DNA from: a phage
DNA: 49,223 nt
Sequence record: NC_103567.1
Direction: 5' to 3' (one strand)
This document shows positions 523 through 49,105 of the stretch, piece by piece (the first letter of the stretch is position 1; each line of letters begins with the position of its first letter). Under the pieces are notes generated by a model that had not been told where the DNA came from, did no database searches, and saw nothing but the letters and a program-made list of their open reading frames with translations. The position numbers were made by a program, and so were the translations under genes.

Positions 523-550
523 TTGACGAGAACAAATGGCGGCGATAATA
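523..550 (+). promoter_or_regulatory. sigma70-like early promoter (TTGACG-N16-ATAATA); -10 sits in the loop of inverted repeat GGCGGCG / GCCGCC
   Basis: Near-consensus -35 and -10 with proper spacing about 40 bp upstream of the ATG at 588. Confidence 0.6.
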
Positions 551-587
551 TGCCGCCACGAACTAACCAACAGGAGGATAACCAATC

Positions 588-1040
588 ATGGCAACTACCA
601 AAGAGTTTTGCGACAGCTTGCGTGAACTGGCGAAGAAGTTAGCAAGCGGAGAGCTTGATAATTACATCATTGCCGATGCTCTTATCGAGGACAATCTCGA
701 CGAGCAAGACAGGAAGAAGGTTAACGCCTCATACATTCGCACGATCATGAATCGCGTCCCTGACGTGAAGGAGATCGGAACGGTTTCAATTACTCGCACT
801 GATCCGGTTGAGGAAGCGCCAGGGTTTAAGGTGGCAATCAACCGCGAGGCAAAGCGACAGGTATTCACAAAAAATGATATTCCGGCACTGGAAAAGAGGA
901 TCGGTGAGCGAATCGCCAAGCGACTGCTAAACACAATGCCAAATATCACGGATCTGGAAGGTGAACAACTCCAGGGCGCGGCAATCGGAATTAAGCGTTA
1001 TCAGGATCTGATTAAGTCAATGGTTGAGCAAGGGGAATAA
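588..1040 (+). CDS. hypothetical early protein, first gene of the rightward early block
   Basis: 150-aa ORF; AGGAGG about 11 nt upstream of ATG; directly downstream of the promoter at 523-550. Confidence 0.75.
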   Translation: MATTKEFCDSLRELAKKLASGELDNYIIADALIEDNLDEQDRKKVNASYIRTIMNRVPDVKEIGTVSITRTDPVEEAPGFKVAINREAKRQVFTKNDIPALEKRIGERIAKRLLNTMPNITDLEGEQLQGAAIGIKRYQDLIKSMVEQGE

Positions 1041-1620: not shown

Positions 1621-1641
1621 AATAGCACTTTTTGTTAAAAC
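1621..1641 (+). promoter_or_regulatory. 21-bp early-promoter-associated motif, class I (AATAGCACTTTTTGTTAAAAC)
   Basis: Matches the dispersed motif; TGG-CATAAT extended -10-like element about 22 bp downstream; gene follows. Confidence 0.6.
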
Positions 1642-1696
1642 TCGATTGGGGTAGTTTGGCATAATTACCACATCGAAACGAAACGAGGAAAACACA

Positions 1697-2455: not shown

Positions 2456-2476
2456 AATAGCACGAATTGCTAAAAC
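2456..2476 (+). promoter_or_regulatory. 21-bp motif, class II (AATAGCACGAATTGCTAAAAC)
   Basis: Motif followed by inverted repeat GGGCTT...AAGCCC with TATAGT in its loop; gene at 2533. Confidence 0.6.
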
Positions 2477-2532
2477 AGAATTTTGGGCTTGCGGTATAGT
2501 AAGCCCATACCAAACAACGAGAGGATCACAAA

Positions 2533-3785: not shown

Positions 3786-3971
3786 ATGTTGACTTTTATC
3801 TTGATCGCTATCGTTTTAATTCTGTATGTTTGCGGCGCTTTCCTGATGCGAGCACTACTAAAAGAGGCTGACGCTGATGATAAGGATAGTTGGAAGCCGA
3901 TTCTTTTATGGCCTGGTTATATCATCGTGCCAATTTACGAGCTAATCCGCGATGGTGAGTTTAAATGGTAA
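3786..3971 (+). CDS. small membrane protein
   Basis: ORF track 3753-3971; internal ATG at 3786 with AGAGGA RBS; N-terminal hydrophobic helix LTFILIAIVLILYVCGAFLM. Confidence 0.55.
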   Translation: MLTFILIAIVLILYVCGAFLMRALLKEADADDKDSWKPILLWPGYIIVPIYELIRDGEFKW

Positions 3972-3991
3972 ATAGCACTTTTTGCTAAAAC
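3971..3991 (+). promoter_or_regulatory. 21-bp motif, class I
   Basis: AATAGCACTTTTTGCTAAAAC then inverted repeat GGCACA...TGTGCC enclosing TGATAAAGT. Confidence 0.6.
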
Positions 3992-4048
3992 TTGCTAAGG
4001 CACATTTGATAAAGTGTGCCTTGTCGAGACAAGCAAGGAGAATGACAA

Positions 4049-4539: not shown

Positions 4540-5107
4540 AATTATTATCCTCAACGCGCCGCCTGGTGCTGGCAAAGATACGATTGGCAAGATGATTTCT
4601 GTCTATTCGCCTGGTAAGCAATGCCGAATCATTAGCTTTAAAGAGCCAATGTTTGATATTGCATTAGCTATCCTGGGCAAAGAGAACTATCAGCGTTTCA
4701 TGCTGGCTTACGATTACAGAGAGCAGAAAGAAAGGCCGCAAACATTCCTGATGGGTATGTCACCGCGCGAGTTCATGATCTGGATTAGCGAGGATGTGAT
4801 CAAGCCTAAATTCGGTAAGGATTATTTCGGCGTAAGGTTTAATCAGAAAGTAAAAGAGTGTGATGCTCCTGTTGTTTGCACTGATGGCGGTTTTCCAGAT
4901 GAAATTATAGCGCTAATCAATGCTGGTAATGAGGTGAAGTTATGCCGCTTGCACCGCGACGGGTTCACGTTTGCAGGTGATAGCCGCAACTACATTCGAA
5001 TAAATCCATACTACCAGAAAAACGGATATAGCGAGCACGATTATAAATTGGTTGATAAACAACCAAATGTAACGGTAAAGGAAATCATTCGCGATCACCT
5101 TAAATAG
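4532..5107 (+). CDS. P-loop nucleotide kinase (deoxynucleoside monophosphate kinase-like)
   Basis: N-terminal IIILNAPPGAGKDT Walker A in the arrangement seen in phage dNMP kinases; 191 aa. Confidence 0.7.
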   Translation: MAKIIILNAPPGAGKDTIGKMISVYSPGKQCRIISFKEPMFDIALAILGKENYQRFMLAYDYREQKERPQTFLMGMSPREFMIWISEDVIKPKFGKDYFGVRFNQKVKECDAPVVCTDGGFPDEIIALINAGNEVKLCRLHRDGFTFAGDSRNYIRINPYYQKNGYSEHDYKLVDKQPNVTVKEIIRDHLK

Positions 5108-5123
5108 CACGAATTGCTAAAAC
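5103..5123 (+). promoter_or_regulatory. 21-bp motif, class II
   Basis: AATAGCACGAATTGCTAAAAC then AAGGCC...GGCCTT enclosing TGTTATAGT. Confidence 0.6.
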
Positions 5124-5187
5124 TTGCGCAAGGCCATTTGTTATAGTGGCCTTATTCAAGAGAAGCAACCAATCAGAGGAATAAACG

Positions 5188-5981: not shown

Positions 5982-6494
5982 ATGAAAGCTAAAAATGATT
6001 TTTATAACTACCTGACAAAAGGCCGCGACTATACCGTTTTGAATAGCATAGATACTCTTTACCTGGTTGTTGCTGATAATGGCGTTAGAGTTTGGCTTGA
6101 TAAAACTCTTTTCGAAAGCGAGCACCTAAGCAATGCAAAGCGGATCGCAGATGAAGCAAGTGCATTAGCAGAGCGTGAAAGAATTCGCGATATCGTTGCG
6201 GAGCAGGTGAGAAATTCATGTTCGCCTGGTGGCGATATCTTCAAATCAATGCGCGGTGAAATGACTGTTGGAATTCAAGATCGCGTAATTGCAAAATCAG
6301 TTGATTCTGTAATTGAGAATGCGAAATTCAATGCGTTGATTAACTCAGAGCCTAACGAATACGTCAAAGTGTTAGAGCAACTGCGTGAAGTGCTGAGAGT
6401 GCCGGAAGGTGAGAATATAGTGACTCATGCAAAGGTTGTAAGGACGTTGGCTGATGCTTTGCTTGACGTTTACCCAGGAATGAAGTGCAAATAG
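5982..6494 (+). CDS. hypothetical protein
   Basis: 170-aa ORF, AAGGAGAA RBS. Confidence 0.65.
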   Translation: MKAKNDFYNYLTKGRDYTVLNSIDTLYLVVADNGVRVWLDKTLFESEHLSNAKRIADEASALAERERIRDIVAEQVRNSCSPGGDIFKSMRGEMTVGIQDRVIAKSVDSVIENAKFNALINSEPNEYVKVLEQLREVLRVPEGENIVTHAKVVRTLADALLDVYPGMKCK

Positions 6495-6510
6495 CACTTT
6501 TTGTTAAAAC
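6490..6510 (+). promoter_or_regulatory. 21-bp motif, class I
   Basis: AATAGCACTTTTTGTTAAAAC then GAGGGCA...GTCCTC enclosing TGTTAAAGT. Confidence 0.6.
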
Positions 6511-6568
6511 TTCCGCGAGGGCATTTGTTAAAGTGTCCTCATTGAAGCGAAACACGGAGATTTAGAAA

Positions 6569-7787: not shown

Positions 7788-7816
7788 TTGACGGCGTGTT
7801 GTCTGATTGGTAGATT
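7788..7816 (+). promoter_or_regulatory. sigma70-like promoter (TTGACG-N17-TAGATT) flanked by inverted repeat ACGGCG / CGCCGT
   Basis: Consensus-like -35 with 17-bp spacer; followed by a ~130-nt GC-rich leader before the ATG near 7948. Confidence 0.5.
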
Positions 7817-7947
7817 AAACGCCGTGAACATAAGAGGCTCAATAGAGCAAAGCGCGGCGCGTTAGCCGTAAAACCTAATCGGATGGGATTGCATAGCAAA
7901 CGACCATCGCGGGAACCGTAACCCGCAACCATTCAGGAGAATTCACG

Positions 7948-18912: not shown

Positions 18913-19229
18913 AACGGGCGGTTTATCTGTATTATCAGAAACCGCCGACAGATGCAGAATTGCAAGCCGTAGGATTAACCCGCGCAGACTATGAAGGAGA
19001 AGATCCGCCAGAGGTCATATTTGATGAAAGTATGATGCAATCATGGGATATATTTTGCGCGATGGGTACACAGTGGCGTAGTGCTGGCGCTGGTGCTTAC
19101 GGTTTTGATTATAATGTTTTGCCTATGTTATTCAGAATCTATAAAATAGAAGATGAAGAAATGGCCTTAAATGACTTGCGCATCATGGAACAAAAAGCAC
19201 TGGAAATGATGCAAGCAAATAACAAATAA
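18592..19229 (+). CDS. tail assembly chaperone -1 frameshift product (lambda GT-like)
   Basis: -1 frame is open from about 18837 through 19229; slippery heptamer at 18903-18909 sits 1 nt before the zero-frame stop. Confidence 0.55.
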
Positions 19230-28531: not shown

Positions 28532-28570
28532 ATGCCCTGGCTTAACGGTCGGGGCATTTTGTTTTCTTTT
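28532..28570 (+). terminator. terminator-like hairpin with long loop plus T-rich tail after the J-like gene
   Basis: ATGCCC...GGGCAT stem followed by TTTTGTTTTCTTTT. Confidence 0.45.
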
Positions 28571-28577
28571 GTTCTAC

Positions 28578-28675
28578 GGTGTTCACAACTTAATCCGGCG
28601 TAGAATTGAGAACGTTATGACAACAAAAAGAACAAATTAAATATCTATATAATACATACACTTAGAGTTTAATTA
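28578..28675 (+). repeat. copy B of the duplicated ~100-bp control-region element
   Basis: Aligns with 138-235 and is followed by similar TATATA-rich and GT-rich blocks. Confidence 0.7.
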
Positions 28676-28921
28676 TTATTATATATATCTATTTGTATCC
28701 TTCTTGTTTCCATTGTTCTCTATGGTTTGTAGTGGTTGTGTGTTTTGTGTTGGTTGATGGTTATATATCACATGGTATGTATTTATATATGGTATGCGGC
28801 GTAAATGCGTGAACAATGGAACACAAAAACAACAATTAGTAAAATCATAAACTTACGATGTGATTTTGTTGTCAATGCTAGTTGTAAACGTATTCAAAAC
28901 AAAAAGAACACTTAAATGGTA

Positions 28922-28949
28922 TTGACTACATGAAACATTCACATATAAT
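28922..28949 (+). promoter_or_regulatory. strong sigma70-like early promoter (TTGACT-N16-TATAAT)
   Basis: Near-consensus hexamers about 30 bp upstream of the exonuclease gene. Confidence 0.65.
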
Positions 28950-28977
28950 GCAGACATACCAACGAGAGGATGAATAA

Positions 28978-30033
28978 ATGAGCGATTTTAAAGTTTACAC
29001 CTTTGACCAGTTAACCAACGGTGAATATCACGATCCGAAAGGCTGGGCGGCTGAATACGTTAGCGGTTCAAGCCTGGCAGAAATCTTTGCAAGTTGTCCG
29101 GCAGCGTGGAAATACAGACCACGCGAGGAAAGCAAAGCGCTTGTTTTCGGTACGCAGTCACACACAAACTTCCAGAGTAGTGAGCTATTCGCAAAAGAGT
29201 ACCGCAGAGCGCCAGCGCCGGAAGATTATGAAAACCTGATTACGAGCCAGGCAGCATTGGCAGCGAAATTAAAATCTTTTGGCCTGACTGGTACAAGCGG
29301 GAAAACGTATCCAGATCTGATTAAGATGATGGTTGATTGTGGTGAGGATCTAAATGTGCAATGGCTCATTGAAATGATCGCAGAAAGCCAGGCGCGAGCG
29401 GATAACGTTGAATTGGTTCCGGCTAAAGATTACGACGCTTGCGTTACCATGCGCCGCGTACTGGAAAGCATACCTGAACACAACGCTTGCATGAATAGCC
29501 CAACAGCACAACGCGAGCTATCAATTTTCGGAACTATCAAAGGCGTGAAAGTCAAAGTAAGGCTTGACCATGTTGATATTTGCAAAGATGTGCTTGCAAC
29601 GGTGATTTCCGGTTATGATGGTGAAGGTAATCCGGTATATGAAACAACGCGATTTGATGAAGCGATTGTGATCACGGATTATAAAACAACGTCAAGCGCT
29701 AACCCGTCAGAGTTTGCAAGGCTGGCATTCAATCACGGCTACTACTTGAAAATGGCATTGCAACATGACTTATTCAAGAAAGCGTATCCAGAAGAAACGC
29801 GCCCCGTAGTAGTCAGATTGCTGGCGCAGGAAAAGAAAGAGCCTTATTTACCGATTGCATACCGCATGACGGATGAACAATTGAAGATCGGACGACTTCA
29901 ATACATGAGCGTGATAAACCAGTTTGCAGAATGCCAGGTAAATGACGTTTGGCCTTCATACGCAAACGGAGAGCCGGAAATTGACCTTCAAACGCCTGAT
30001 TGGGTTCGTCGTCAATACAAAGGTTTTTTATAA
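28978..30033 (+). CDS. recombination exonuclease (PD-(D/E)xK, RecE/RecB-family-like)
   Basis: 351 aa; RLDHVD ... VITDYKTT fits a D...(D/E)xK nuclease core; GAGAGGA RBS; first gene of the exo-annealase-SSB module. Confidence 0.7.
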   Translation: MSDFKVYTFDQLTNGEYHDPKGWAAEYVSGSSLAEIFASCPAAWKYRPREESKALVFGTQSHTNFQSSELFAKEYRRAPAPEDYENLITSQAALAAKLKSFGLTGTSGKTYPDLIKMMVDCGEDLNVQWLIEMIAESQARADNVELVPAKDYDACVTMRRVLESIPEHNACMNSPTAQRELSIFGTIKGVKVKVRLDHVDICKDVLATVISGYDGEGNPVYETTRFDEAIVITDYKTTSSANPSEFARLAFNHGYYLKMALQHDLFKKAYPEETRPVVVRLLAQEKKEPYLPIAYRMTDEQLKIGRLQYMSVINQFAECQVNDVWPSYANGEPEIDLQTPDWVRRQYKGFL

Positions 30034-30053
30034 ATAGCACTTTTTGCTAAAAC
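30033..30053 (+). promoter_or_regulatory. 21-bp motif, class I
   Basis: AATAGCACTTTTTGCTAAAAC then 8-bp inverted repeat GATGCGTG...CACGCATC enclosing TGGTATACT. Confidence 0.6.
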
Positions 30054-30110
30054 TGCCATTCGATGCGTGGTATACTACACGCATCAACCAACGAGAGAGA
30101 GGAAACAAAA

Positions 30111-30401
30111 ATGGAACAGCAATTCAATGAGCAAGACATTCAAGATGTGCGCGATCACGTAGGCGGATTTGTAAACGCATTAGGAATTATGCAACGCCAG
30201 TTCTTGCGCGTAATTGATCCAAGCGAATCACCGGAAACTCTTGAATATGTTCGCAAGGTTGCATATTCGATTGATAACGTTGTGTTAACGGTTCTTCAAA
30301 TGGAAAATAACGAAGAACACCGCAAGATGATTAATCAGGCAAGTGAAATCATGATCCAGAATTTGATTGATTATCACAACGATAACGAAGAAAAGCATTA
30401 A
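30111..30401 (+). CDS. hypothetical acidic protein
   Basis: ORF track 30063-30401; internal ATG 30111 has GAGAGAGAGG RBS. Confidence 0.55.
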   Translation: MEQQFNEQDIQDVRDHVGGFVNALGIMQRQFLRVIDPSESPETLEYVRKVAYSIDNVVLTVLQMENNEEHRKMINQASEIMIQNLIDYHNDNEEKH

Positions 30402-33980: not shown

Positions 33981-33991
33981 AATTTCACCTC

Positions 33992-34011
33992 ATAGCATTT
34001 TTTGTTAAAAT
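33992..34011 (+). promoter_or_regulatory. 21-bp motif variant (ATAGCATTTTTTGTTAAAAT), orphan copy pointing antisense to the primase gene
   Basis: Plus-strand orientation between two minus-strand genes; followed by CCATTTGTTACATG and GC hairpin CCCCGCCGAAGCGGGG. Confidence 0.45.
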
Positions 34012-34050: not shown

Positions 34051-34073
34051 TAAAAAACCCCGCCGAAGCGGGG
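34051..34073 (-). terminator. rho-independent terminator for the primase transcript
   Basis: On the minus strand CCCCGCTTCGGCGGGG followed by T6. Confidence 0.65.
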
Positions 34074-34140
34074 CATCGTTAACGACAACGAGAAGTCAAT
34101 GAAACAGATTCATCGAAAAGTGTTAGTAGCAGGATGAATA

Positions 34141-35067
34141 TTATAATAAGTCACTTGCCTTGTAAAGCCTCCGCTCTATTCCATTTTTGAATTTACCGTT
34201 AATTGGTAACATTACGTCTAATTCGCGATCATCAGCAGCAATCAAAGTATCGCGATCATTAGCATGGCACACAACGCGCATTTTGCGATCACCTTTGTAG
34301 CGATACGCTACTATTTCAAGATTCGACGCAGAGAAGCAAGCCCATACTTCTTGTCCCGTAGCTAGGTGGATATGTTGCGCATCAATCCAATCAACGCAAA
34401 GGTAAATTGTTTTGTCAGTCTTGCCAGTTACCGCAACGGAGCCGCGCGTGTAATCCTTAGCGTAAAAACTGCTTTGACCTTCCTCATTGACGAAAAGAAT
34501 ATTACACATTTCATCATCCAGTTCATCGCTATGCACCAAGTGGCAAGGAATTGCGTGTATATGCTCGCAATATCCATTGTCATGAGTTTTTACTCCAACT
34601 TGATACGATTCGCCGTCTAATGGATAAAACGCCTCAAAAACGCTTAGATTTGTTATTTCCATGCGTTCAGTTTTATCCATCACCTCAACACATTTTTCAT
34701 GTGGTGCTTGCGATCCGAAATTGTAACCTGAGTCACGTTTTGCCGCTTTGTTGGCCTTGTTGACAACCTCAACCGGAACCAGGTTTAACCATTCTCCTAG
34801 AGTGTCGATTGCTTCACTGTAATTTTCACCACGTATGCGCATGAATAATCCGATCCCTGAATCATTCCCGCATTGGTTGCAAATGTTTCCGCCGTCGCCT
34901 TTCTCGTTGATTTTGTCAGTCCAACGAAAGCGATCTTTACCGCCGCAATAAGGGCAAGGCTGATGCTTTCCGTTAAAGGTTAATTGAGGAATATCGCAAA
35001 GTTTCATCAATGCCGCTTGCCACATGCCGCGCATCTTTGGGATTACTTCTTCTTTTTGATAATGCAT
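34141..35067 (-). CDS. DNA primase (zinc-ribbon plus Toprim-like)
   Basis: 308 aa; CPYCGGKDRFRW...CNQCG matches the primase zinc-ribbon pattern CPxCGGxDRF...CxxCG. Confidence 0.7.
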   Translation of the reverse strand: MHYQKEEVIPKMRGMWQAALMKLCDIPQLTFNGKHQPCPYCGGKDRFRWTDKINEKGDGGNICNQCGNDSGIGLFMRIRGENYSEAIDTLGEWLNLVPVEVVNKANKAAKRDSGYNFGSQAPHEKCVEVMDKTERMEITNLSVFEAFYPLDGESYQVGVKTHDNGYCEHIHAIPCHLVHSDELDDEMCNILFVNEEGQSSFYAKDYTRGSVAVTGKTDKTIYLCVDWIDAQHIHLATGQEVWACFSASNLEIVAYRYKGDRKMRVVCHANDRDTLIAADDRELDVMLPINGKFKNGIERRLYKASDLL

Positions 35068-35082
35068 TTCTCAACATCCAAA

Positions 35083-35116
35083 TAAAAAAAACTGGCACGA
35101 TGATAAACCATGCCAG
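35083..35116 (-). terminator. rho-independent terminator between the HTH gene and the primase gene
   Basis: On the minus strand CTGGCATGG...CGTGCCAG hairpin followed by a long T-run. Confidence 0.6.
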
Positions 35117-35126
35117 GCCGGAATTT

Positions 35127-35735
35127 TTAGCAATCAGTGCTATCGACGGAAATCACAACGCGTTTCTTCTGATTGGCTTCCTTTGCTTTGCGCCGTTCTT
35201 CTTTCGCCTTGTCTCGTTCAGCCTTGCGCCGCGCTTTCTCCTTCTCGCGTTCTTCTGGACTCATAGACCGCAACGGATCGTAAGGACGCACAAATCCTCT
35301 TGCTTCCGCTTCCTCTTTGGTTACAAATCGCATGAGCTTTCTGTTGCTGCAACGATTCTCTAATGGCTTGCCGTTGTTGTCAAAGCGCAAATCTGGACGG
35401 CAATATGAAGCGCGGAAGCCGTTAAAACCTTTGCGGCGGTAATCCTTTTGGATCAGTTCAGCGCCTTTAGCTGAAATCATGCCGCGCTCTTTCCATCCCC
35501 ACACTGTTTTAAGGTTAACGCCAATCTCACGCGCCAACGCAGCACAGCCGCCATAAGCGCTAACCACCTCATCAAGCCTCGCTTTTAATCCTGCCCTTAC
35601 TTCTTCCTTTAGTACCAGATAACCGCTAACAGGTGCGCGGCGCTTCCGGTCTTTACCACGCCTTACGCCGTTGTTACCATTGATTGTGCGTTTGTCGATT
35701 TCGCCCGTTGAGGCCGCAATTTTGATTTCGCTCAT
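35127..35735 (-). CDS. DNA-binding protein with predicted helix-turn-helix and highly basic C-terminal tail
   Basis: 202 aa; GCAALAREIGVNLKTVWGWKERG looks like an HTH; C-terminus KEKARRKAERDKAKEERRKAKEANQKK. Confidence 0.6.
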   Translation of the reverse strand: MSEIKIAASTGEIDKRTINGNNGVRRGKDRKRRAPVSGYLVLKEEVRAGLKARLDEVVSAYGGCAALAREIGVNLKTVWGWKERGMISAKGAELIQKDYRRKGFNGFRASYCRPDLRFDNNGKPLENRCSNRKLMRFVTKEEAEARGFVRPYDPLRSMSPEEREKEKARRKAERDKAKEERRKAKEANQKKRVVISVDSTDC

Positions 35736-35745
35736 ATTTTCACCT

Positions 35746-35767
35746 ATAGCACTTTTTGCTAAAAAAC
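35746..35767 (+). promoter_or_regulatory. 21-bp motif, class I variant
   Basis: TATAGCACTTTTTGCTAAAAAAC, then TGTGTATGAT -10-like element; helicase gene follows. Confidence 0.55.
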
Positions 35768-35823
35768 TTGATTAAGTTTGTGTATGATATGCCGCAAATG
35801 GCATTTAGTCAAAAGGATAAAAA

Positions 35824-37799: not shown

Positions 37800-38207
37800 A
37801 TGGTTACTGATAAAGGCGATTATCTGGAGTATTACGACAAATCAGATCCAGATGACAGAAAAGAGGAAGCGCACCAGGTTGATTCTTATTCATGGTTAAC
37901 ATATGAGTTTCCAATGTGGCTTGTTTGGCACACTAAAAACGAAGGGAAGAAAACAATAGGCACAGCAGTAAAGGATCAGCAAGCAGGTGTAAAAAAAGGA
38001 GTAAGCGACATTCTAATCCTGACTGGTTTTATTGGCTGCAAATATGCATTCATTGCAATTGAGCTTAAACGAGCCAACAAGAAAGGAACTAAAGTAAGCC
38101 AGGAACAAAGGGAATTCTTGCGCCGCGTTAGGGAATGCGGAGGATTTGCCGCAGTATGCTATGGTGTAGATCAAGTAAAATTGGCTATCGCAGACGCTAC
38201 AAAATAG
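37800..38207 (+). CDS. VRR-NUC-like PD-(D/E)xK nuclease
   Basis: 135 aa; DILILTGF...IAIELKRAN fits a D...ExK core; immediately follows the helicase. Confidence 0.6.
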   Translation: MVTDKGDYLEYYDKSDPDDRKEEAHQVDSYSWLTYEFPMWLVWHTKNEGKKTIGTAVKDQQAGVKKGVSDILILTGFIGCKYAFIAIELKRANKKGTKVSQEQREFLRRVRECGGFAAVCYGVDQVKLAIADATK

Positions 38208-38223
38208 CACTTTTTGTTAAAAC
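38203..38223 (+). promoter_or_regulatory. 21-bp motif, class I
   Basis: AATAGCACTTTTTGTTAAAAC then GGCGC...GCGCC and CATAAT. Confidence 0.6.
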
Positions 38224-38278
38224 AGGCGCGACGGAATGCGCCATAATGCACACATCAGAACGAAACGGAGAATTAACC

Positions 38279-39300: not shown

Positions 39301-39531
39301 ATGAGCATTCGATTAGCCGATCACATGAAATGGGATTTATTTGTCGGTATGACAATTCGCTTACTTGATAAGCATGGTTATAACGATGATAAAATGGAGT
39401 TGATAAACTGCCTGGATATGACATTTGACGAAATCAAAGTTGCGCCTTTGTACATGTGGGAAAGAAAAATTGAGCACGACCTGATACAATACAAACGCAG
39501 AGAGGGCGCACGATTTTTCAATGTGAAATAG
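39301..39531 (+). CDS. hypothetical protein
   Basis: 76-aa ORF directly after dam. Confidence 0.55.
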   Translation: MSIRLADHMKWDLFVGMTIRLLDKHGYNDDKMELINCLDMTFDEIKVAPLYMWERKIEHDLIQYKRREGARFFNVK

Positions 39532-39547
39532 CACTTTTTGTTAAAAC
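39527..39547 (+). promoter_or_regulatory. 21-bp motif, class I
   Basis: AATAGCACTTTTTGTTAAAAC then CCCGC...GCGGG and TATTAT. Confidence 0.6.
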
Positions 39548-39602
39548 CCGCTACGGCGGGTTTTGTATTATGTGCTTAACGGAAAACAAGAGGATTTCAA
39601 AA

Positions 39603-42418: not shown

Positions 42419-42637
42419 AAAAATATTGTTCATTAAGTCTTGGAAACTATTACCGCTATAATCCTTTTCCTCAATAATGTGAGCGCCTTTCTTTTTTATA
42501 TCCCACAGCATTTTTTCATATTCGCAGCGGTTAATGCCAAACGTACTACCATCATCAACATATGCGGTTCCTTTGTTGTTGAAAACGTCAAATGTAACAT
42601 TAACAACGCGAATTGTTTTGATAGTGCATTTTAACAT
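42416..42637 (-). CDS. hypothetical protein
   Basis: 73-aa ORF; AAAGGA RBS on the minus strand; motif copy at 42698 upstream. Confidence 0.55.
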   Translation of the reverse strand: MLKCTIKTIRVVNVTFDVFNNKGTAYVDDGSTFGINRCEYEKMLWDIKKKGAHIIEEKDYSGNSFQDLMNNIF

Positions 42638-42697
42638 TTTGTTTTCCTTTTGTTGCTACGTTTCGTTAAAACAAATATACCCGATACAAGATCGGGT

Positions 42698-42718
42698 GTT
42701 TTAACAAAAAGTGCTATT
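42698..42718 (-). promoter_or_regulatory. 21-bp motif, class I (reverse complement)
   Basis: GTTTTAACAAAAAGTGCTATT on the plus strand; an inverted repeat lies downstream in the direction of transcription. Confidence 0.6.
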
Positions 42719-43229: not shown

Positions 43230-44810
43230 TTACCCCATTAACGCCGGATTTACATAAACAAATTTACCAACGCTGCAAACATAATTCTTTTCTTCAAGCA
43301 TTGGCAATAATTGTTCCTCAATTCGTTTCATCACTCCTGATTGACCTGTAAACGGCTTAACCTTACGCGCACTTTCATAGATAGCTCTTGCATTGGTAAC
43401 GCCTTTATTTTGACGTGAGATCTTAATGATTATTTCAATTAACTTGCTCATTTCTGCATCATCTCCAGCGTGACCGGAAGCATTCGCGGCGTTGATATAT
43501 GTTTTGCTTAATTCGCTGAACATCACCAAAGCCTCTTGCATTGTCTCAACTTCAATTTCTCGCGACTTTTGCGGCGTACCGTTTGGATTAAACCAATTGC
43601 GGATCGTGTGCAATACTGACGCAATGCGGATCACTTGCTTATCCATTTTACCCAAAGCACCACGCAACATTGTATGTGAATATTTCCCGCCGTCTGCTAA
43701 ATCTGGCTCTAATTGCTGGCGAGCAATATTAAGAACACGCATTGCAGAACGTGACGGCTTCAATACCACATTTTGTTCAGTCATGATGTTATGAATCAAC
43801 TGGAAATATTGCGCCTTTAATTCTTTATCAACTGGCGTGTAATCAAGATCACCATTTTCATCAATAAATACACGCTCGCCTAACATTGTTTTTTCACGTA
43901 CAAGCAAGAAACGTTCACTAACACCGATACCACGCGCCCCTGCATCCATGATCCCTTTTATCGTTTCATCCTGGGCAATTACGCTCATGCAGCCCAACGC
44001 AACAAAACTCATATTGTTTTCAGAGTTGGCGCGAGCTATTGAAACGTGTCCGGCGTCCCATGCTTTTAGAACCAATTCGCTGTTAGTCTTGCGATCACTA
44101 TTAGCGTAAGTCAATCCGAGTAAGCTGTTGATGCTTGTTGCTTCATCGGAAATGACAGCAAAGTTACCCTGGCGATTGTTGATCTTTGCTAACCCTTCCG
44201 GCGTGGTGTCTGATACCGGAAAAACGATATCGCACATTTTTTCTAACTTTTCCTCTAATTCCTCCTTTTCCTCAAACAGCGCCGCTAACTCAGTGCCGGA
44301 ACGTTCAGCTTTCAATTCCTTTTCAACGCCTTTTAATTTCGCTGCGATCTTCTTTCGCTCTTTCTTGCGTTGTTCGTTGATGCGCTCAACTTCACAGACC
44401 ATTGGCGCAATAGCCAGGCTGTTGATTGCTGATTTACCAGTTGATGGCGGCTGACTGGTTACAACATAAAGCGCCGTTGGTTGTTCAGTGCCGTGGTACT
44501 CAACTTGGAAGCGTCCAACCATAGCGGCGGAAACGCAACCAATGAAATGCATATAGGCCGATGATTCAGGAAATTGAACAGATTGCGCAATGCTACGTGA
44601 CAGTTTACCCACAACATCAACATCATTACCCAAAGAGATCACAGGATAGCGGTCATTAGCGCCGTTGATATCCTTTACAGGTTCCCAAAAGCTGGACGAT
44701 TGGCGGTAGCCGTTAGACTGAATAGCAACGCGAAGCGGCGATGTTCCCTGCGATTCTGCAATGGCTATAACTTGTTGAGGTGTCAATTTGTTGGTGTCAA
44801 AGTCAAACAT
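43230..44810 (-). CDS. P-loop NTPase, possibly a replicative-helicase or primase-associated ATPase
   Basis: 526 aa; Walker A-like SQPPSTGKSA, charged coiled-coil stretch, Walker B-like FAVISDE; own motif-type promoter. Confidence 0.55.
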   Translation of the reverse strand: MFDFDTNKLTPQQVIAIAESQGTSPLRVAIQSNGYRQSSSFWEPVKDINGANDRYPVISLGNDVDVVGKLSRSIAQSVQFPESSAYMHFIGCVSAAMVGRFQVEYHGTEQPTALYVVTSQPPSTGKSAINSLAIAPMVCEVERINEQRKKERKKIAAKLKGVEKELKAERSGTELAALFEEKEELEEKLEKMCDIVFPVSDTTPEGLAKINNRQGNFAVISDEATSINSLLGLTYANSDRKTNSELVLKAWDAGHVSIARANSENNMSFVALGCMSVIAQDETIKGIMDAGARGIGVSERFLLVREKTMLGERVFIDENGDLDYTPVDKELKAQYFQLIHNIMTEQNVVLKPSRSAMRVLNIARQQLEPDLADGGKYSHTMLRGALGKMDKQVIRIASVLHTIRNWFNPNGTPQKSREIEVETMQEALVMFSELSKTYINAANASGHAGDDAEMSKLIEIIIKISRQNKGVTNARAIYESARKVKPFTGQSGVMKRIEEQLLPMLEEKNYVCSVGKFVYVNPALMG

Positions 44811-44861
44811 CTAAAAATCTCCTTCTTGTTGCCGCTAATTATAACGGCAACATTCTACAGC

Positions 44862-44882
44862 CTTTTAGCAATTCGTGCTATT
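44862..44882 (-). promoter_or_regulatory. 21-bp motif, class II (reverse complement)
   Basis: CTTTTAGCAATTCGTGCTATT on the plus strand upstream of the 526-aa gene. Confidence 0.6.
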
Positions 44883-45126: not shown

Positions 45127-45485
45127 GAGTATTTGGCCTCAAACAGATAAGCACCGCCAGCGGCTGAAAATCCAACTTCTTCACGATACAGCGTGAAACG
45201 GTCGCCGTTTTCGTCGAACACGTATCCAGCAACAGCACCTAACACGCGGCCTTGTTCGATCTGGTAACGCTTATCGGCTTTGAAAGTTTTCTTGATCTGC
45301 ATGGAGTGGTTTACCCATGTGCATTTAATGGTTTTGGTCTTAACATTTCGGAATGTTAATCCGGTTAAGTTGGCGTGAATCCATTTCCCATCTAACTTAA
45401 CGAAAGTATCATCATTTTCGTCTACCCGCGCTTTGTATAGGCGGTTATCAGATCCGATAAGTTTGATTGATTTGAATTTAGCCAT
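45123..45485 (-). CDS. hypothetical protein
   Basis: 120-aa ORF; AAAGGAGA RBS on the minus strand; motif copy upstream. Confidence 0.6.
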   Translation of the reverse strand: MAKFKSIKLIGSDNRLYKARVDENDDTFVKLDGKWIHANLTGLTFRNVKTKTIKCTWVNHSMQIKKTFKADKRYQIEQGRVLGAVAGYVFDENGDRFTLYREEVGFSAAGGAYLFEAKYS

Positions 45486-45541
45486 TTGATTTATCTCCTT
45501 TTGTTTTCGTTGAAAGCATTATGCCGGATACGTGATCCGGC

Positions 45542-45562
45542 GTTTTAACAAAAAGTGCTATT
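45542..45562 (-). promoter_or_regulatory. 21-bp motif, class I (reverse complement)
   Basis: GTTTTAACAAAAAGTGCTATT on the plus strand. Confidence 0.6.
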
Positions 45563-46694: not shown

Positions 46695-46899
46695 TAAACA
46701 TGCTCATTTCGTCAATCATCGCGTAAGCATCGCTTTCAGTCATGCGACGTATTCTTCCGCCTGGGTGTTCGCCAACAGCGTAACCAGTTTTTACGCGGGT
46801 AATCGTTAACTGATGGAATCCAGAATCGCGATCCATTTTCAAAACTACTTTCCCGTGAGCTTTGACAATGTTCATGATGGATTCAGTTTTCAGTTTCAT
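46678..46899 (-). CDS. hypothetical protein
   Basis: 73-aa ORF; GGAGAA RBS on the minus strand; motif copy upstream. Confidence 0.55.
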   Translation of the reverse strand: MKLKTESIMNIVKAHGKVVLKMDRDSGFHQLTITRVKTGYAVGEHPGGRIRRMTESDAYAMIDEMSMFIEKWG

Positions 46900-46953
46900 T
46901 TTTGATTCTCCATTTTGTTTGTGTGAAAGTATGATACCAGTCAGAGCGATATC

Positions 46954-46975
46954 GTTTTTAGCAATTCGTGCTGTT
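46954..46975 (-). promoter_or_regulatory. 21-bp motif, class II variant (reverse complement)
   Basis: GTTTTTAGCAATTCGTGCTGTT on the plus strand. Confidence 0.5.
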
Positions 46976-47367: not shown

Positions 47368-47851
47368 GAAAACCCCTGTTTATTTTTTCTCTCTCAATAG
47401 CCATGCTAGCTAATTCAGGAGAATCAAAAAGACCAATATGGATTTCTTTTCCTTCTACTTTTAATCTTGCTCTCCATTTTTTAGCTACGGAATGCCACGA
47501 AACACCGTTAAACCCTGATTTATTTGCTTTGCAATATGATTGATTTTTACCGTTTTCATTTGCACTAACAAGGCGTAGGTTTTCTATCCTGTTATCAATT
47601 CTGTCGTGGTTTATATGATCAATCTGCATTCCTTCTGGAATTTTGCCATTATGCATTTCCCAAACGATTCGATGCGCAAGATAACTTTTATCATTCAATG
47701 TTATCTCTATGTATCCATCATTTCTAATGCTTCCTGCAACTTTTCCAGCCCACTTTTTATTCCATGCAGAATCTCTATATGATCTTATGTTTGTGCGCGG
47801 CTTTCTTATAAGATTACCGCAATCATATATAAAAAAGTCGTGCCAATTCAT
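47339..47851 (-). CDS. HNH homing endonuclease with AP2-like DNA-binding domain
   Basis: 170 aa; YLAHRIVWEMHNG...DHINHDRIDNRIENLRLVSANEN is an HNH motif; C-terminal FNGVSWHSVAKKWRARLKVEGKEIHIGLF looks like an AP2 domain. Confidence 0.75.
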   Translation of the reverse strand: MNWHDFFIYDCGNLIRKPRTNIRSYRDSAWNKKWAGKVAGSIRNDGYIEITLNDKSYLAHRIVWEMHNGKIPEGMQIDHINHDRIDNRIENLRLVSANENGKNQSYCKANKSGFNGVSWHSVAKKWRARLKVEGKEIHIGLFDSPELASMAIEREKINRGFHENHGKKKA

Positions 47852-47905
47852 TTTAAATTCTCCGGTTCGTTTCGATGAATGTATTATGCCAAAACAAACC
47901 GGATC

Positions 47906-47926
47906 GCTTTTAACAAAAAGTGCTAT
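47906..47926 (-). promoter_or_regulatory. 21-bp motif, class I (reverse complement)
   Basis: CTTTTAACAAAAAGTGCTATT on the plus strand upstream of the HNH gene. Confidence 0.6.
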
Positions 47927-48027
47927 TTAATTAAAATACGAATACCTTTTCGCACGCTTTCCGTCGCCTCCGTAATGGTCATTAGCAACAGCAAGAATCC
48001 AAGCGTTAGGAATAAAAAATAGCTCCA

Positions 48028-48455: not shown

Positions 48456-48670
48456 TGTGCAGCCTCCACAGTTTCAAATACGGTATTGAATGCCAGAAGT
48501 TTAAATTTCTTGCCTGGCTCAACAACCTGAATATTCCAGGTAATGCCGCCGTGATATGCAACCATATCATCAATATCAACAGTAACCTCAGTACCTTTTT
48601 TGAACAATCCTTTTTCGTGGCTCGCATCGCGTACAGTAACCACAGTTTCGAATTGAGTTTGAATTTCCAT
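48452..48670 (-). CDS. hypothetical protein
   Basis: 72-aa ORF; AGGAG RBS on the minus strand; motif copy upstream. Confidence 0.6.
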   Translation of the reverse strand: MEIQTQFETVVTVRDASHEKGLFKKGTEVTVDIDDMVAYHGGITWNIQVVEPGKKFKLLAFNTVFETVEAAQ

Positions 48671-48724
48671 CGTTAATCTCCTGATTGGTTTCGATGGGGC
48701 AACTATATCAAGATACCCCGATCC

Positions 48725-48746
48725 TTTTTTAGCAATTCGTGCTATT
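48725..48746 (-). promoter_or_regulatory. 21-bp motif, class II (reverse complement)
   Basis: TTTTTTAGCAATTCGTGCTATT on the plus strand. Confidence 0.6.
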
Positions 48747-49029
48747 AGCCAAACGCTTTAATTTCGAAATCTTCTTCTGCCTGATTAGCAACCGCCGTGA
48801 ACATTTGCTCAAGAGTTTCAAAGCCGAAATGTTTAGCGATCTCATAAGCCGCTTTACCTTCCGTCTGCATGTTTAGCGCTTCGCAATAGTGCATTTCCAG
48901 ATTGTTCAGGTATTTGTTGCCAGTTGGGATTGCTGCGTCGATTTTGTCCCACACGATCCAAAAGTTTGTTTTGTCAGCCGCTGCGAGTACAAAGTTTGTC
49001 TTGTCTACTGCAATCACTAAGTTTTCCAT
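48745..49029 (-). CDS. hypothetical protein with internal short duplication
   Basis: ORF track 48745-49065; likely start at internal ATG 49029 with GAGGA RBS; contains VIAVDKTNFVLAAADKTNFWIVW. Confidence 0.55.
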   Translation of the reverse strand: MENLVIAVDKTNFVLAAADKTNFWIVWDKIDAAIPTGNKYLNNLEMHYCEALNMQTEGKAAYEIAKHFGFETLEQMFTAVANQAEEDFEIKAFG

Positions 49030-49062
49030 CGTGTAATCCTCAGTTCGTTTCGTTGAGGTAAT

Positions 49063-49080
49063 CATAGCAATTCGTGACTG
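49063..49080 (-). promoter_or_regulatory. 21-bp motif, degenerate class II copy, in tandem with the next copy
   Basis: CATAGCAATTCGTGACTG on the plus strand. Confidence 0.4.
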
Positions 49081-49084
49081 ATTG

Positions 49085-49105
49085 GTTTTAACAAAAAGTG
49101 CTATT
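49085..49105 (-). promoter_or_regulatory. 21-bp motif, class I (reverse complement)
   Basis: GTTTTAACAAAAAGTGCTATT on the plus strand; outermost leftward promoter candidate. Confidence 0.6.

Follow-up and report, generated by a model that had tools for sequence, protein, structure and literature searches.

The window analyzed here, which is the whole 49,223-nt stretch of NC_103567.1, represents a 49-kb T1-like siphophage (Drexlerviridae, Tlsvirus). The focal locus (30033-30111) lies between an exonuclease gene and a downstream gene that starts with the ATG at 30111, and consists of a 20-bp box, a short stem-loop and an extended -10 element within its loop (Table 1). The focal stem-loop has a predicted RNA minimum free energy (MFE) of -14.2 kcal/mol (z -4.7) and a DNA MFE of -8.6 kcal/mol, and the start site deduced from the sequence is the A of a CA step at 30083, within the 3' arm. 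This stem is unchanged in the SorkZaugg and Sazh-like relatives; in relative L089 it has moved by one pair, with the outer pair gone and an inner pair added. Relative L076 carries a different downstream gene, and its junction is located at 30051.

The box motif, AATAGCAC(TTTTT/GAATT)G(C/T)TAAAA, is present in 17 copies in the whole window, compared with 0.04 expected, and all 17 are oriented toward their gene. Each of them (17/17) is followed by a -10-like hexamer at a constant offset of 39 (38) from the box start, with an 18-bp spacer between box and -10, and 85% of the box promoters have the extended -10 G at -14. Position weights place the putative +1 at index 51 (A in 86% at index 51 and C in 78% at index 50, that is, CA at -1/+1), and across all promoters G is enriched at indices 27-31 and C at indices 47-50. 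In the literature searched, we found no transcript maps and no 5' or 3' end data for T1-like phages. The downstream part of the cassette comprises a C-rich discriminator ending with CA at -1/+1, an A/C-rich leader (ATCGAAACGAA...), a Shine-Dalgarno (SD) sequence and the ATG, which is located approximately 76-85 nt downstream of the box start; the cassettes are intergenic and approximately 80 nt in length. A canonical -35 element with 17-bp spacing was identified at promoters 523 and 7788 only. The TTGYTA of the box was considered as a -35 element and dismissed, given that 21-22 bp separate it from the -10. The upstream gene has its stop codon inside or at the box in 12 of the 17 promoters of the window, where TAG occurs at index 2 and TAA occurs at index 15 or -2, and in 140 of 171 promoters across relatives. 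A search of the window against Rfam at gathering thresholds gave no match.

Table 1. Coordinates of the focal elements and of the other promoter cassettes in the window.
Feature	Position	Strand	Details
Focal box AATAGCACTTTTTGCTAAAA	30033..30052	+	Adjoins TAA stop of upstream exonuclease gene (28978-30033)
Focal stem-loop	30062..30085	+	GATGCGTG (30062-30069)/CACGCATC (30078-30085), 8 bp, 8-nt loop GTATACTA
Extended -10 TGgTATACT in focal loop	30068..30076	+	TATACT 30071-30076, TG before
Sigma70-type cassette	523..590	+	TTGACG (523-528), 17-bp spacer, TAATAT (546-551), ATG 588; hairpin TGGCGGC (537-543)/GCCGCCA (552-558) astride -10, then A/C-rich leader, SD
Box cassette	1621..1696	+	Imperfect hairpin 1642-1676 brackets CATAAT (1660-1665)
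Box cassette	2456..2532	+	TGGGCTT/AAGCCCA (2484-2507) brackets TATAGT (2495-2500); junction of 562-bp one-gene indel vs phage SorkZaugg
Box cassette	3971..4048	+	Hairpin 3991-4028 brackets TAAAGT (4010-4015); inner stem AAGGCACA/TGTGCCTT (3997-4022), outer stem CTTG/CGAG; MFE -20.6 kcal/mol
Box cassette	5103..5187	+	Hairpin 5123-5160 brackets TATAGT (5142-5147); stems AAGGCCA/TGGCCTT (5130-5153) and CTTG/CAAG
Box cassette	6490..6568	+	Hairpin 6510-6547 brackets TAAAGT (6529-6534); stems GAGGGCA/TGTCCTC with sense-strand G.T and CTTC/GAAG
Sigma70-type promoter	7788..7825	+	TTGACG (7788-7793), 17-bp spacer, TAGATT (7811-7816); hairpin ACGGCGT/ACGCCGT (7791-7825), 21-nt loop over spacer and -10; MFE -20.8 kcal/mol (z -4.7)
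Box cassette, primase gene	35067..35144	-	CTGGCA/TGCCAG (35116-35092) brackets TATCAT; then T8, terminator-like
Box promoter, helicase gene	35745..35823	+	Hairpin not significant (z -1.0); first promoter of rightward unit, upstream co-directional gene absent
Box cassette	38203..38278	+	Spacer hairpin GGCGC/GCGCC (38225-38242), ends at CATAAT
Box cassette	39527..39602	+	Spacer hairpin AAAACCCGC-tacg-GCGGGTTTT (39542-39565), then GTATTAT; canonical intrinsic terminator within promoter spacer
Box cassette	42637..42718	-	Spacer hairpin ACCCGAT/ATCGGGT (42697-42679), then ATATTTGTTTT; terminator-like
Box cassette	44810..44882	-	TGTTGCCG/CGGCAACA (44852-44827) brackets TATAAT (44843-44838)
Box cassette	45485..45562	-	Spacer hairpin GCCGGAT/ATCCGGC (45541-45523), ends at CATAAT
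Box promoter, hairpin not significant	46899..46975	-	MFE -4.8 kcal/mol
Box promoter, hairpin not significant	47851..47927	-	Upstream ORF 100 nt away
Box cassette	48670..48746	-	GGGGTA/TGCCCC with sense-strand T.G (48723-48693) brackets TATAGT
Box promoter without hairpin	49029..49105	-	First promoter of leftward early block; no adjoining upstream ORF

Stem-loops around the -10 elements

The initial annotation cited five inverted repeats around -10 elements, all of which are present in the window sequence, and the repeats that it described at both sigma70-like promoters were found at 523 (537-558) and 7788 (7791-7825). Such repeats are not equally common at random hexamers: strong repeats, defined as perfect repeats that bracket the hexamer with a score of at least 10, occur at 6 of 17 box promoters versus 2 of 279 other -10-like hexamers (binomial p ~1e-9; Mann-Whitney p 9e-5). 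One of the two background matches is the 523 promoter on the opposite strand.

The same annotation stated that the -10 is bracketed downstream of most motif copies, a generous description since this holds for 9 of 17 (1621, 2456, 3971, 5103, 6490, 30033, 35144, 44882, and 48746), three of these nine hairpins being imperfect or containing G.T pairs. At four others (38203, 39527, 42718, and 45562), the hairpin occupies the spacer alone and reaches as far as the -10, and at the remaining four (35745, 46975, 47927, and 49105) folding detected no significant hairpin. RNA folding of the 42 nt past the box gave an MFE of -10 kcal/mol or lower in 13 of 17 cases (z -1.8 to -7.3), and stem-loops are thus found at 13 of the 17 box promoters and at both sigma70-type promoters. 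No separate terminators were found upstream of the hairpin-less promoters by folding the gaps.

Similar patterns were observed in related phages. Among 81 non-redundant promoters (clusters), 23 (28%) contain bracketing repeats, compared with 2.2% after 3' halves were swapped between promoters, and 13 contain spacer hairpins, compared with 2.7% in the swap control, which corresponds to a 6- to 13-fold enrichment of both placements. Hairpins astride the -10 occur in registers 77, 79, and 80. A -10 in the loop is therefore not the conserved architecture that had been proposed, because the place of the hairpin varies between the spacer and several registers around the -10.

The arms themselves are gene specific, as previously noted, and change through compensatory substitutions across relatives, in agreement with the proposal of a structural role rather than an operator. 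Within one family of 16 variants, both partners have changed in 8 of 14 pairs, and pairing holds in 85% of cells in the true register versus 31-49% after sliding the 3' partner. The covariation score of 0.446 (0.147 for shuffles) was reached by none of 500 shuffles. Entire stems have been swapped with pairing retained, including AAGGCCA/TGGCCTT, GTAACGTCA/TGGCGTTAC, and TGAGTGCA/TGCACTCA, and arms of the GGGGTA/TACCCC type are also seen. Mutual information computed for every spacer column against every downstream column (154 promoters) mostly reflected family structure and mixed registers and was dropped; within-family pair counts with the swap control were used in its place. The -10 boxes are genuinely surrounded by GC-rich inverted repeats, and these are under selection.

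Within the helices, G.T cells were counted 10 times and A.C cells 0 times, such that one-sided changes appear as G.U in the sense strand. Folding gave a mean z-score of -2.5 on the sense strand versus -1.4 on the antisense strand (Wilcoxon p 5.5e-9, n=81), although the G-rich spacer and the T-rich loop could account for part of this asymmetry through their composition.

Proposed role in read-through RNA and alternative explanations

Stem-loops are associated with the presence of an upstream gene. Hairpins with an MFE of -10 or lower were identified at 82% of promoters with an adjoining upstream ORF versus 45-52% of those without (p 5e-5); the link is weaker among related loci alone (p 0.005), and these statistics ignore kinship. 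Approximately half of the promoters without an adjoining ORF carry hairpins anyway, and promoters 35745 and 49105, each the first of its divergent unit, have none.

In the sense direction, a terminator scan was passed by 3 of 13 window hairpins (39542-39565, 35116-35092, and 42697-42679), which resemble intrinsic terminators overlapping a downstream promoter in having a GC-rich stem and a T-run; the other ten differ in having A/C-rich or -10-derived tails and no U-tract. The combination of a GC-rich hairpin and an immediately adjoining U-tract is thus limited in the window to these three and is not a general property of the cassettes. At least four T in the 8-nt tail were found in 2 of 33 hairpins that bracket the -10 and in 6 of 16 spacer hairpins in relatives. 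Because their 3' tails are A/C-rich and only these 2 of 33 have a T-rich tail, most -10-bracketing hairpins are, as judged from sequence, not canonical intrinsic terminators.

Repeat enrichment, compensatory evolution, strand asymmetry, upstream-gene association and mosaic junctions at cassettes (see below) are demonstrated by this analysis. We consider that these loci are probably composite promoter/stem-loop cassettes of the promoter-early stem-loop (PeSL) type, in which an RNA hairpin attenuates or ends read-through and is fitted into those promoter positions that are not otherwise constrained. Sequence constraint would hold for the box, the -10, the surroundings of +1, the leader, and the SD, leaving the spacer and discriminator alone free. 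Because only these two parts can vary, both arms lie in the spacer or one arm lies on each side of the -10, which would offer a structural reason for the -10 in the hairpin loop: no other sequence is free. The modal 3' stem foot is at index 50 (11 of 33 bracket-type or enclosing stems; others at 48-58), and since the putative start is at or near this foot, the hairpin would in the modal case be outside the promoter's own transcript. It would form in RNA reading through from the upstream gene and would attenuate or terminate read-through, or leave a protected 3' end, and each early gene would then be expressed mainly from its own promoter. We infer both this RNA-level function in the present phage and the efficiency of hairpins lacking a U-tract. 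Of the three structural options raised in the initial annotation, RNA hairpins formed upon read-through fit best, considering the better folding of the sense strand, the sense-strand G.U pairs, the link to an upstream co-directional ORF and the presence of some canonical terminators. The published anatomy and reporter assays of PeSLs (PMC2839356) and the matching layout of RB49 cassettes (see below) likewise speak for the cassette reading.

A role in RNA processing or stability appears fairly unlikely. Read-through RNA might be cut in the AU-rich box (e.g., by RNase E) and the hairpin might then cap the 5' end of the downstream message, or it might insulate the leader and SD to give equal translation from any promoter. 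This would be consistent with the sense-strand RNA signature, with the majority of hairpins lacking U-tracts, and with a hairpin that ends where the promoter's own transcript begins, so that both RNA species have the same unstructured leader. However, spacer-type hairpins with U-tracts are plain terminators, and in the sole recorded experiment, a lacZ reporter of RB49 PeSL211/210, one spacer-type stem-loop lowered downstream expression, an effect that was interpreted as termination in that study (Arbiol et al., 2010; PMC2839356).

It is also unlikely that the repeat acts in DNA, where extrusion of a cruciform or of a single-strand hairpin would present the -10 in a loop or tune melting in another way and would thereby regulate initiation, for example through supercoiling, as at the hairpin promoters of phage N4. 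Although the -10 and extended -10 lie exactly in the loop at 9 of 17 promoters with the 3' stem foot at +1, the canonical promoters 523 and 7788 have repeats as well, and perfect Watson-Crick arms fold as DNA (z ~-4), the hairpin position relative to the -10 is not constant, with some hairpins confined to the spacer and others in several registers. Promoters that open a transcription unit have no hairpins, and the confinement of G.T to the sense strand, which folds better than the antisense strand, differs from the symmetry of a cruciform. Stems of 5-8 bp with loops of 8-12 nt fold with approximately -9 kcal/mol per DNA strand, and short stems with such loops are unfavorable and poor candidates for extrusion; the cruciform or single-strand option of the initial annotation is not supported in view of these short stems and of the variable position, with which it is hard to reconcile. 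Moreover, no RNA polymerase gene is annotated in a 94%-identical relative or reported for phage TLS (PMC11447400). Extrusion of spacer hairpins as a means of restoring 17-bp spacing was ruled out by arithmetic, as it removes 14-19 bp.

Homology breakpoints fall in cassettes in 27 of 219 cases versus 5% expected (2.5-fold, p 2e-5), where the expectation is the cassette share of early regions and the comparison is with early-region coverage rather than with other intergenic boundaries. A 562-bp gene in SorkZaugg lies between two boxes, isolated cassettes are conserved amid divergent flanks, and indels and replacements between close relatives occur at cassettes, as in PeSLs. Conserved cassettes would thus double as recombination junctions for gene shuffling. 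That the stem-loops are mainly exchange substrates or by-products of PeSL-mediated shuffling, with little transcriptional role, is nevertheless quite improbable. These junctions, together with the one at 30051 and a crossover in RB49 that was mapped to the loop of a stem-loop (Arbiol et al., 2010; PMC2839356), are in line with such a role, but gene-specific arms give no homology between cassettes, the homology being in the box and leader, and compensatory pairing and sense-strand G.U are left unexplained. The very improbable reading that a promoter-required G-rich spacer and C-rich discriminator (G at 27-31 and C at 47-50 in all promoters) give only apparent complementarity was rejected by the swap control, which retains composition yet yields 2.2% strong repeats versus 28% observed, and by the double compensatory changes.

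The box and class II marboxes

In both its TTTTT and GAATT variants, the box agrees with all specified positions of 5'-GCAnnWWnTGnnAAA-3'; it also fits CACT-N7-AAA, and its free positions vary as W and Y. Against the 20-mer marbox consensus, which we take to be that of Martin et al. (1999), position 19 is the sole defined mismatch (A in the box versus Y). The marbox core corresponds to indices 4-18, in forward orientation in 17 of 17 copies, and is centered at approximately -40 from the putative +1 (index 51); the focal box likewise fits the consensus in forward orientation with its center at approximately -40. Class II marboxes overlap the -35 region and are centered at approximately -41, with a published window of -36 to -55, and the box agrees with them both in consensus and in position and orientation. 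Similar to class II marbox promoters responding to MarA/SoxS/Rob/RamA (e.g., micF, lpxL P1, and rfaY P1), the box promoters have a forward match to the marbox consensus at approximately -40 and no canonical -35. They differ in the conservation of the box, which is far higher in the phage than among marboxes of cells, and in the embedded stem-loops, which are not known in cellular marbox promoters.

In Slopekvirus (T4-like phages), the whole element is identical, which points to a regulatory module common to unrelated enterobacterial phages that has been exchanged or is constrained by the same hosts. A phage factor common to this phage and Slopekvirus seems unlikely because homologues of the 'transcriptional regulator' encoded at 35127-35735(-) appear to be confined to 44-52 kb genomes among the matches listed. 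In Pfam, this protein has only a weak YdaS/Cro-like HTH match, below threshold. A tblastn search with MarA and SoxS sequences identified no significant homologue in the window (best E-value 0.16), and no link between marboxes and phage promoters was found in the literature searched.

We tentatively suggest that the ~17 early promoters and the same Slopekvirus cassettes may contain a consensus class II marbox and might be switched on by MarA, SoxS, Rob or RamA without a phage factor or a canonical -35, with the hairpins insulating units from read-through. If true, the early expression of a lytic phage would be tied to the bile, antibiotic or oxidative stress state of the host, and this resemblance to marboxes, should it be genuine, would matter more than the cassette finding itself.

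Comparison with known systems

Hairpin promoters of the N4 virion RNA polymerase have short conserved stems, 3-nt loops and a dedicated polymerase, and Frpo single-strand promoters have long hairpins that rebuild a duplex -35/-10. The cassettes described here share with both an inverted repeat at the promoter. They differ in their loops of 8-12 nt, gene-specific arms and RNA sense-strand signature, and the N4-type combination of a short conserved stem, a 3-nt loop and a phage RNA polymerase was not found.

In phage TLS, 21-nt direct repeats (aaATAGCACnnnTTGnTAAAA) have been described (Kropinski and co-workers, 2024; PMC11447400), which represent the same box in the same subfamily, oriented with transcription, approximately 76 nt before start codons and in 18-21 copies. 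There, the repeat was considered alone, and its function was left between a stoperator, an enhancer site and a UP element; terminators were predicted separately, and the fixed -10 at +39 and the gene-specific inverted repeats were not reported (PMC11447400). If true, the marbox reading would account for this repeat.

The closest resemblance is to PeSLs, which were first described in the T4-type myoviruses RB49/phi1 (Arbiol et al., 2010; PMC2839356) and later in T4/PST and KVP40/nt-1 (Comeau et al., 2014; PMC4122927), and for which promoter and terminator activities have been measured for a few RB49 elements (PMC2839356). The initial annotation did not recognize the composite as this described element. 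Both share the order of parts over approximately 70-100 bp from stop codon to ATG (the upstream stop codon comes first, then an A/T-rich upstream region, a promoter that is predicted here, a variable stem-loop and finally the SD and ATG), a variable and stable stem-loop mostly between the -35 and -10 or overlapping the -10, and G-run/C-run stems with G-T pairs. In both, cassettes are dense among small genes without known function, and indel and replacement junctions of close relatives fall inside them. RB49 cassettes that we read directly have the same layout and a near-identical leader, e.g., GGATCGGGGAT..ATCCCCATCGAAACGA and GGAGAATCAAAAATG, and the window promoters 523 and 7788 are of the RB49 type, TTGAC(G)-17--10, with 523 having the same layout as RB49 PeSLs.

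The differences concern the host genome of the cassettes, a 49-kb T1-like siphovirus versus a T4-type myovirus, and the promoter: PeSLs have a strong sigma70-type early promoter with a -35, a -10 and an A/T-rich upstream region, and 17 of the 19 cassettes here have the 20-bp box, with TTGYTA 21-22 bp from the -10, replacing a canonical -35 at 17 bp. We found no report of PeSLs outside T4-like phages in the literature searched. Promoter/stem-loop cassettes thus appear not to be peculiar to T4-type myoviruses and also organize early regions in T1-like siphoviruses, where their leaders are nearly identical. Their recognition would provide annotation rules for Drexlerviridae (promoter, +1, and attenuator) and mark likely recombination junctions, which is relevant to phage engineering. 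In terms of their sequence organization, these cassettes are the T1-like-phage counterpart of the T4-type PeSLs, a kind of element that is already known.

The box promoters and their hairpins

By its sequence, the phage is a T1-like siphovirus of the genus Tlsvirus (Drexlerviridae), sharing 93-96% identity over long stretches with Citrobacter, Salmonella, and Escherichia phages of this genus. Small early, replication, and recombination genes occupy both strands outside the structural region. The "motif" of the initial annotation is a 20-bp box, AATAGCAC(TTTTT/GAATT)G(C/T)TAAAA, present in 17 copies where 0.04 would be expected, all pointing in the direction of the downstream gene. In 17/17 copies (promoters are named here by box-start coordinate), a -10-like hexamer starts 39 nt from the box start (38 at two sites), with 21-22 bp from TTGYTA to the -10. 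A box scan of IMG/VR yielded 120 loci, mostly on ~50-kb contigs; the unique promoters among them that have the -10 at offset 39 number 166-171 and were grouped into 81 clusters. Position weights across these clusters revealed constraint on the box, a G at -14, the -10, CA at -1/+1, the leader ATCGAAACGAA, and the SD. That CA is conserved at index 50/51 (counted from the box start) and indicates the likely +1.

The five inverted repeats quoted in the initial annotation were all found in place, and the repeat at 7788, one of two canonical sigma70-type promoters, has a 21-nt loop enclosing spacer and -10. In the comparison suggested there as a refutation test, made against the window's remaining -10-like hexamers of matching kinds, a strong perfect repeat lies astride the hexamer at 6 of 17 box promoters vs. 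2 of 279 others. One of these two is the other canonical promoter, 523, on the other strand, and the sole non-promoter match is a long imperfect hairpin near the tail chaperone gene. RNA folding of the 42 nt past each box gave a minimum free energy of -10 kcal/mol or lower at 13 of 17 promoters (z -1.8 to -7.3) and z of -4.2 and -4.7 at 523 and 7788; nothing significant was found by folding at 35745, 46975, 47927, and 49105. The proposed placement of the -10 in the loop applies to nine box promoters and fails at the other eight, an anatomy less uniform than claimed; at four, both arms lie within the spacer. The only free stretch from the upstream stop codon up to the next ATG would be the 18-bp spacer and 6-nt discriminator, and a hairpin in that gap would have to sit within the spacer or straddle the -10, which may account for the two hairpin classes and their several registers.

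Coordinates of features in the window and of matching Slopekvirus elements
Feature	Position (strand)	Description
Structural genes	about 8.4-28.5 kb (+)	
Box, examples of the 17 marbox matches	30033-30052; 1621-1640; 45562-45543	forward orientation
Degenerate box copy	33991-34010 (+)	no -10 at offset 39; between convergent genes, adjoining terminator at 34057-34074
Degenerate box copy	14855-14836 (-)	no -10 at offset 39
Promoters with spacer hairpin	38203; 39527; 42718; 45562	stem ending at -10
Imperfect hairpin	18914-18949	GGCGGTTT..AAACCGCC, inner CTG/CAG, around TATTAT; directly past tail chaperone gene stop codon, ahead of next ORF
Spacer-type hairpins, antisense	38225-38242; 42679-42697; 45523-45541	directly followed by GTTTTAAC, complement of box end; terminator scan flags 38242-38225 (-)
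Good sigma70-type promoter	35784-35812 (-)	TTGACT-17-TATCAT; for conserved HTH "transcriptional regulator" gene (35127-35735, -); divergent from, and overlapping, the helicase gene's box promoter (35745, +) on the opposite strand
Non-coding regions	100-600; 28540-28990	~450 bp each, 77% identical mutually, TATATA-rich blocks; ending in leaders of DUF7174 gene (588) and exonuclease gene (28978), respectively
Repeats in 790-aa tail fibre gene	33430-33545 (-)	three, 33 bp, tandem-like, 66-76% identity
Slopekvirus phiEap-3 (L001) elements	1147; 1502	
Slopekvirus Kpn35c1 (L002) elements	1502; 2134	

Selection on pairing

Strong -10-bracketing repeats occur in 23 of the 81 clusters vs. 2.2% after swapping 3' halves between promoters, a control that leaves base composition unchanged (spacer G-rich, discriminator C-rich), and spacer hairpins occur in 13 of 81 vs. 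2.7% in shuffled spacers. Within one promoter family, arms are swapped with pairing kept (AAGGCCA/TGGCCTT, AAGGGCA/TGCCCTT, GAGGGCA/TGTCCTC, GTAACGTCA/TGGCGTTAC, and TGAGTGCA/TGCACTCA), and the outer helix changes from CTTC/GAAG to CTTG/CAAG. Among 16 variants of this family, 85% of cells are paired compared with 31-49% when the 3' partner is slid, 8 of 14 pairs show both-sided changes, and the covariation score is 0.446 vs. 0.147 for shuffles, a value reached by 0 of 500 shuffles. Because the repeats are enriched and their arms covary with pairing kept, the hairpin structure is under selection. This supports the structural role assigned to the repeats in the initial annotation, and we agree with its argument against a sequence-specific operator protein, which is unlikely given that arms are replaced while pairing is preserved.

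RNA or DNA hairpins

Between the mechanisms originally offered, we favour a hairpin that acts as RNA in the sense direction, transcribed from upstream, to which four results point; a cruciform is disfavoured by strand asymmetry and a weak DNA fold. One-sided helix changes leave sense-strand G.T in 10 cells and A.C in 0, and across the 81 clusters the fold relative to shuffles is better in sense (mean z -2.5) than in antisense (-1.4; Wilcoxon p 5.5e-9), both of which argue for RNA since a cruciform would be symmetric. Folded as DNA, the hairpins reach only about -9 kcal/mol per strand, and general considerations make extrusion with 8-12-nt loops implausible. In 12 of 17 window promoters and 140 of 171 overall, the gene upstream has its stop codon within the box or at it, most commonly the TAG of ATAGCAC (92 of the 140 abutting genes in relatives), alternatively the TAA in GCTAAAA, so that coding sequence and regulatory box overlap. 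Stable hairpins are present at 82% of promoters with an abutting upstream gene vs. 45% without (Fisher p 5e-5), or 82% vs. 52% (p 0.005) in window-related loci only, and hairpins are absent from 35745 and 49105, the promoters that open the two divergent units. In many cassettes, the stem runs beyond the inferred start, up to index 57; this would rule out the promoter's own transcript as the place where it forms, leaving DNA or read-through RNA. The 3' foot falls most often at index 50 (11 of 33 stems of the bracket or enclosing type), directly ahead of the likely +1.

Plain intrinsic terminators are embedded in some spacers (e.g., 39542: AAAACCCGC-tacg-GCGGGTTTT-GTATTAT), and three window hairpins pass a terminator scan in the sense direction. 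The -10-bracketing stems are followed by an A/C-rich leader, with at least 4 T in the next 8 nt in only 2 of 33, which counts against a simple "terminator" label for them. Spacer-type hairpins could also act on antisense transcripts.

Relation to marboxes and PeSLs

Both box variants match the marbox definition GCAnnWWnTGnnAAA of Grainger's group wherever a base is specified; the CACT-N7-AAA arrangement seen at micF, a class II site, is matched too. With a forward orientation, a centre at about -40, and about 18 bp to the -10, the 17 sites have class II marbox geometry; Martin et al. reportedly described in 1999 an 18-bp distance to the -10 at class II marbox promoters. The window codes for no homologue of MarA/SoxS, and literature searches turned up no paper that connects marboxes with phage promoters. 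Homologues of the phage's HTH regulator came only from T1-like-sized genomes among the matches listed; the box occurs also in Slopekvirus. We treat the resemblance of the box to a marbox as a lead from sequence only.

For phage TLS, the box has been described as a direct repeat of 21 nt whose function was unknown, with no mention of a fixed -10 or inverted repeats (PMC11447400). The composite cassette (box promoter, hairpin, and leader) closely matches the promoter-early stem-loops (PeSLs) of T4-type phages RB49 and phi1, which begin at the upstream stop codon and bear a strong early promoter; the PeSL211/210 stem-loop matched rrnB T1 in its reduction of lacZ expression, and flanked genes were shuffled via recombination between PeSLs (PMC2839356). 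PeSLs were later extended to T4/PST and KVP40/nt-1 (PMC4122927). In RB49 cassettes read directly, arms of the GGGGAT../..ATCCCC type surround the -10 of PeSL199/198 and 227/226, and PeSL211/210 has a stem in the spacer, then TATACT, without a real U-tract. The shuffling signature also appears to be present in window cassettes, where homology breakpoints vs. relatives fall at 2.5 times the expected frequency. At the cassette at 30033-30085, homology to two relatives ends at 30051, one of which (L076) has a different downstream gene. Phage SorkZaugg carries an extra 562-bp gene (gp66) between two boxes (L003 43358-44028) at a place occupied in the window by just one cassette (2446-2500), a PeSL-style indel.

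The discriminator, leader, and SD of RB49 (L124) PeSLs (CCCCATCGAAACGA...GGAGAATCAAAAATG) are nearly identical to those of the T1-like window cassettes, although RB49 PeSLs have a canonical TTGACA -35, unlike the window box promoters. Compared with published PeSLs, the phage family differs and 17 of 19 window cassettes have the box replacing the canonical -35. The T4-like Slopekvirus phages phiEap-3 and Kpn35c1 contain the entire element, including the identical 20-bp box, the same -10 spacing, and hairpins. Literature searches gave no account of PeSLs beyond T4-like myoviruses. The window elements are, as judged from sequence, PeSL-type promoter/attenuator cassettes, with attenuation predicted for the U-tract-less hairpins; PeSL-type cassettes, known from T4-type phages, thus now appear in a T1-like siphovirus.
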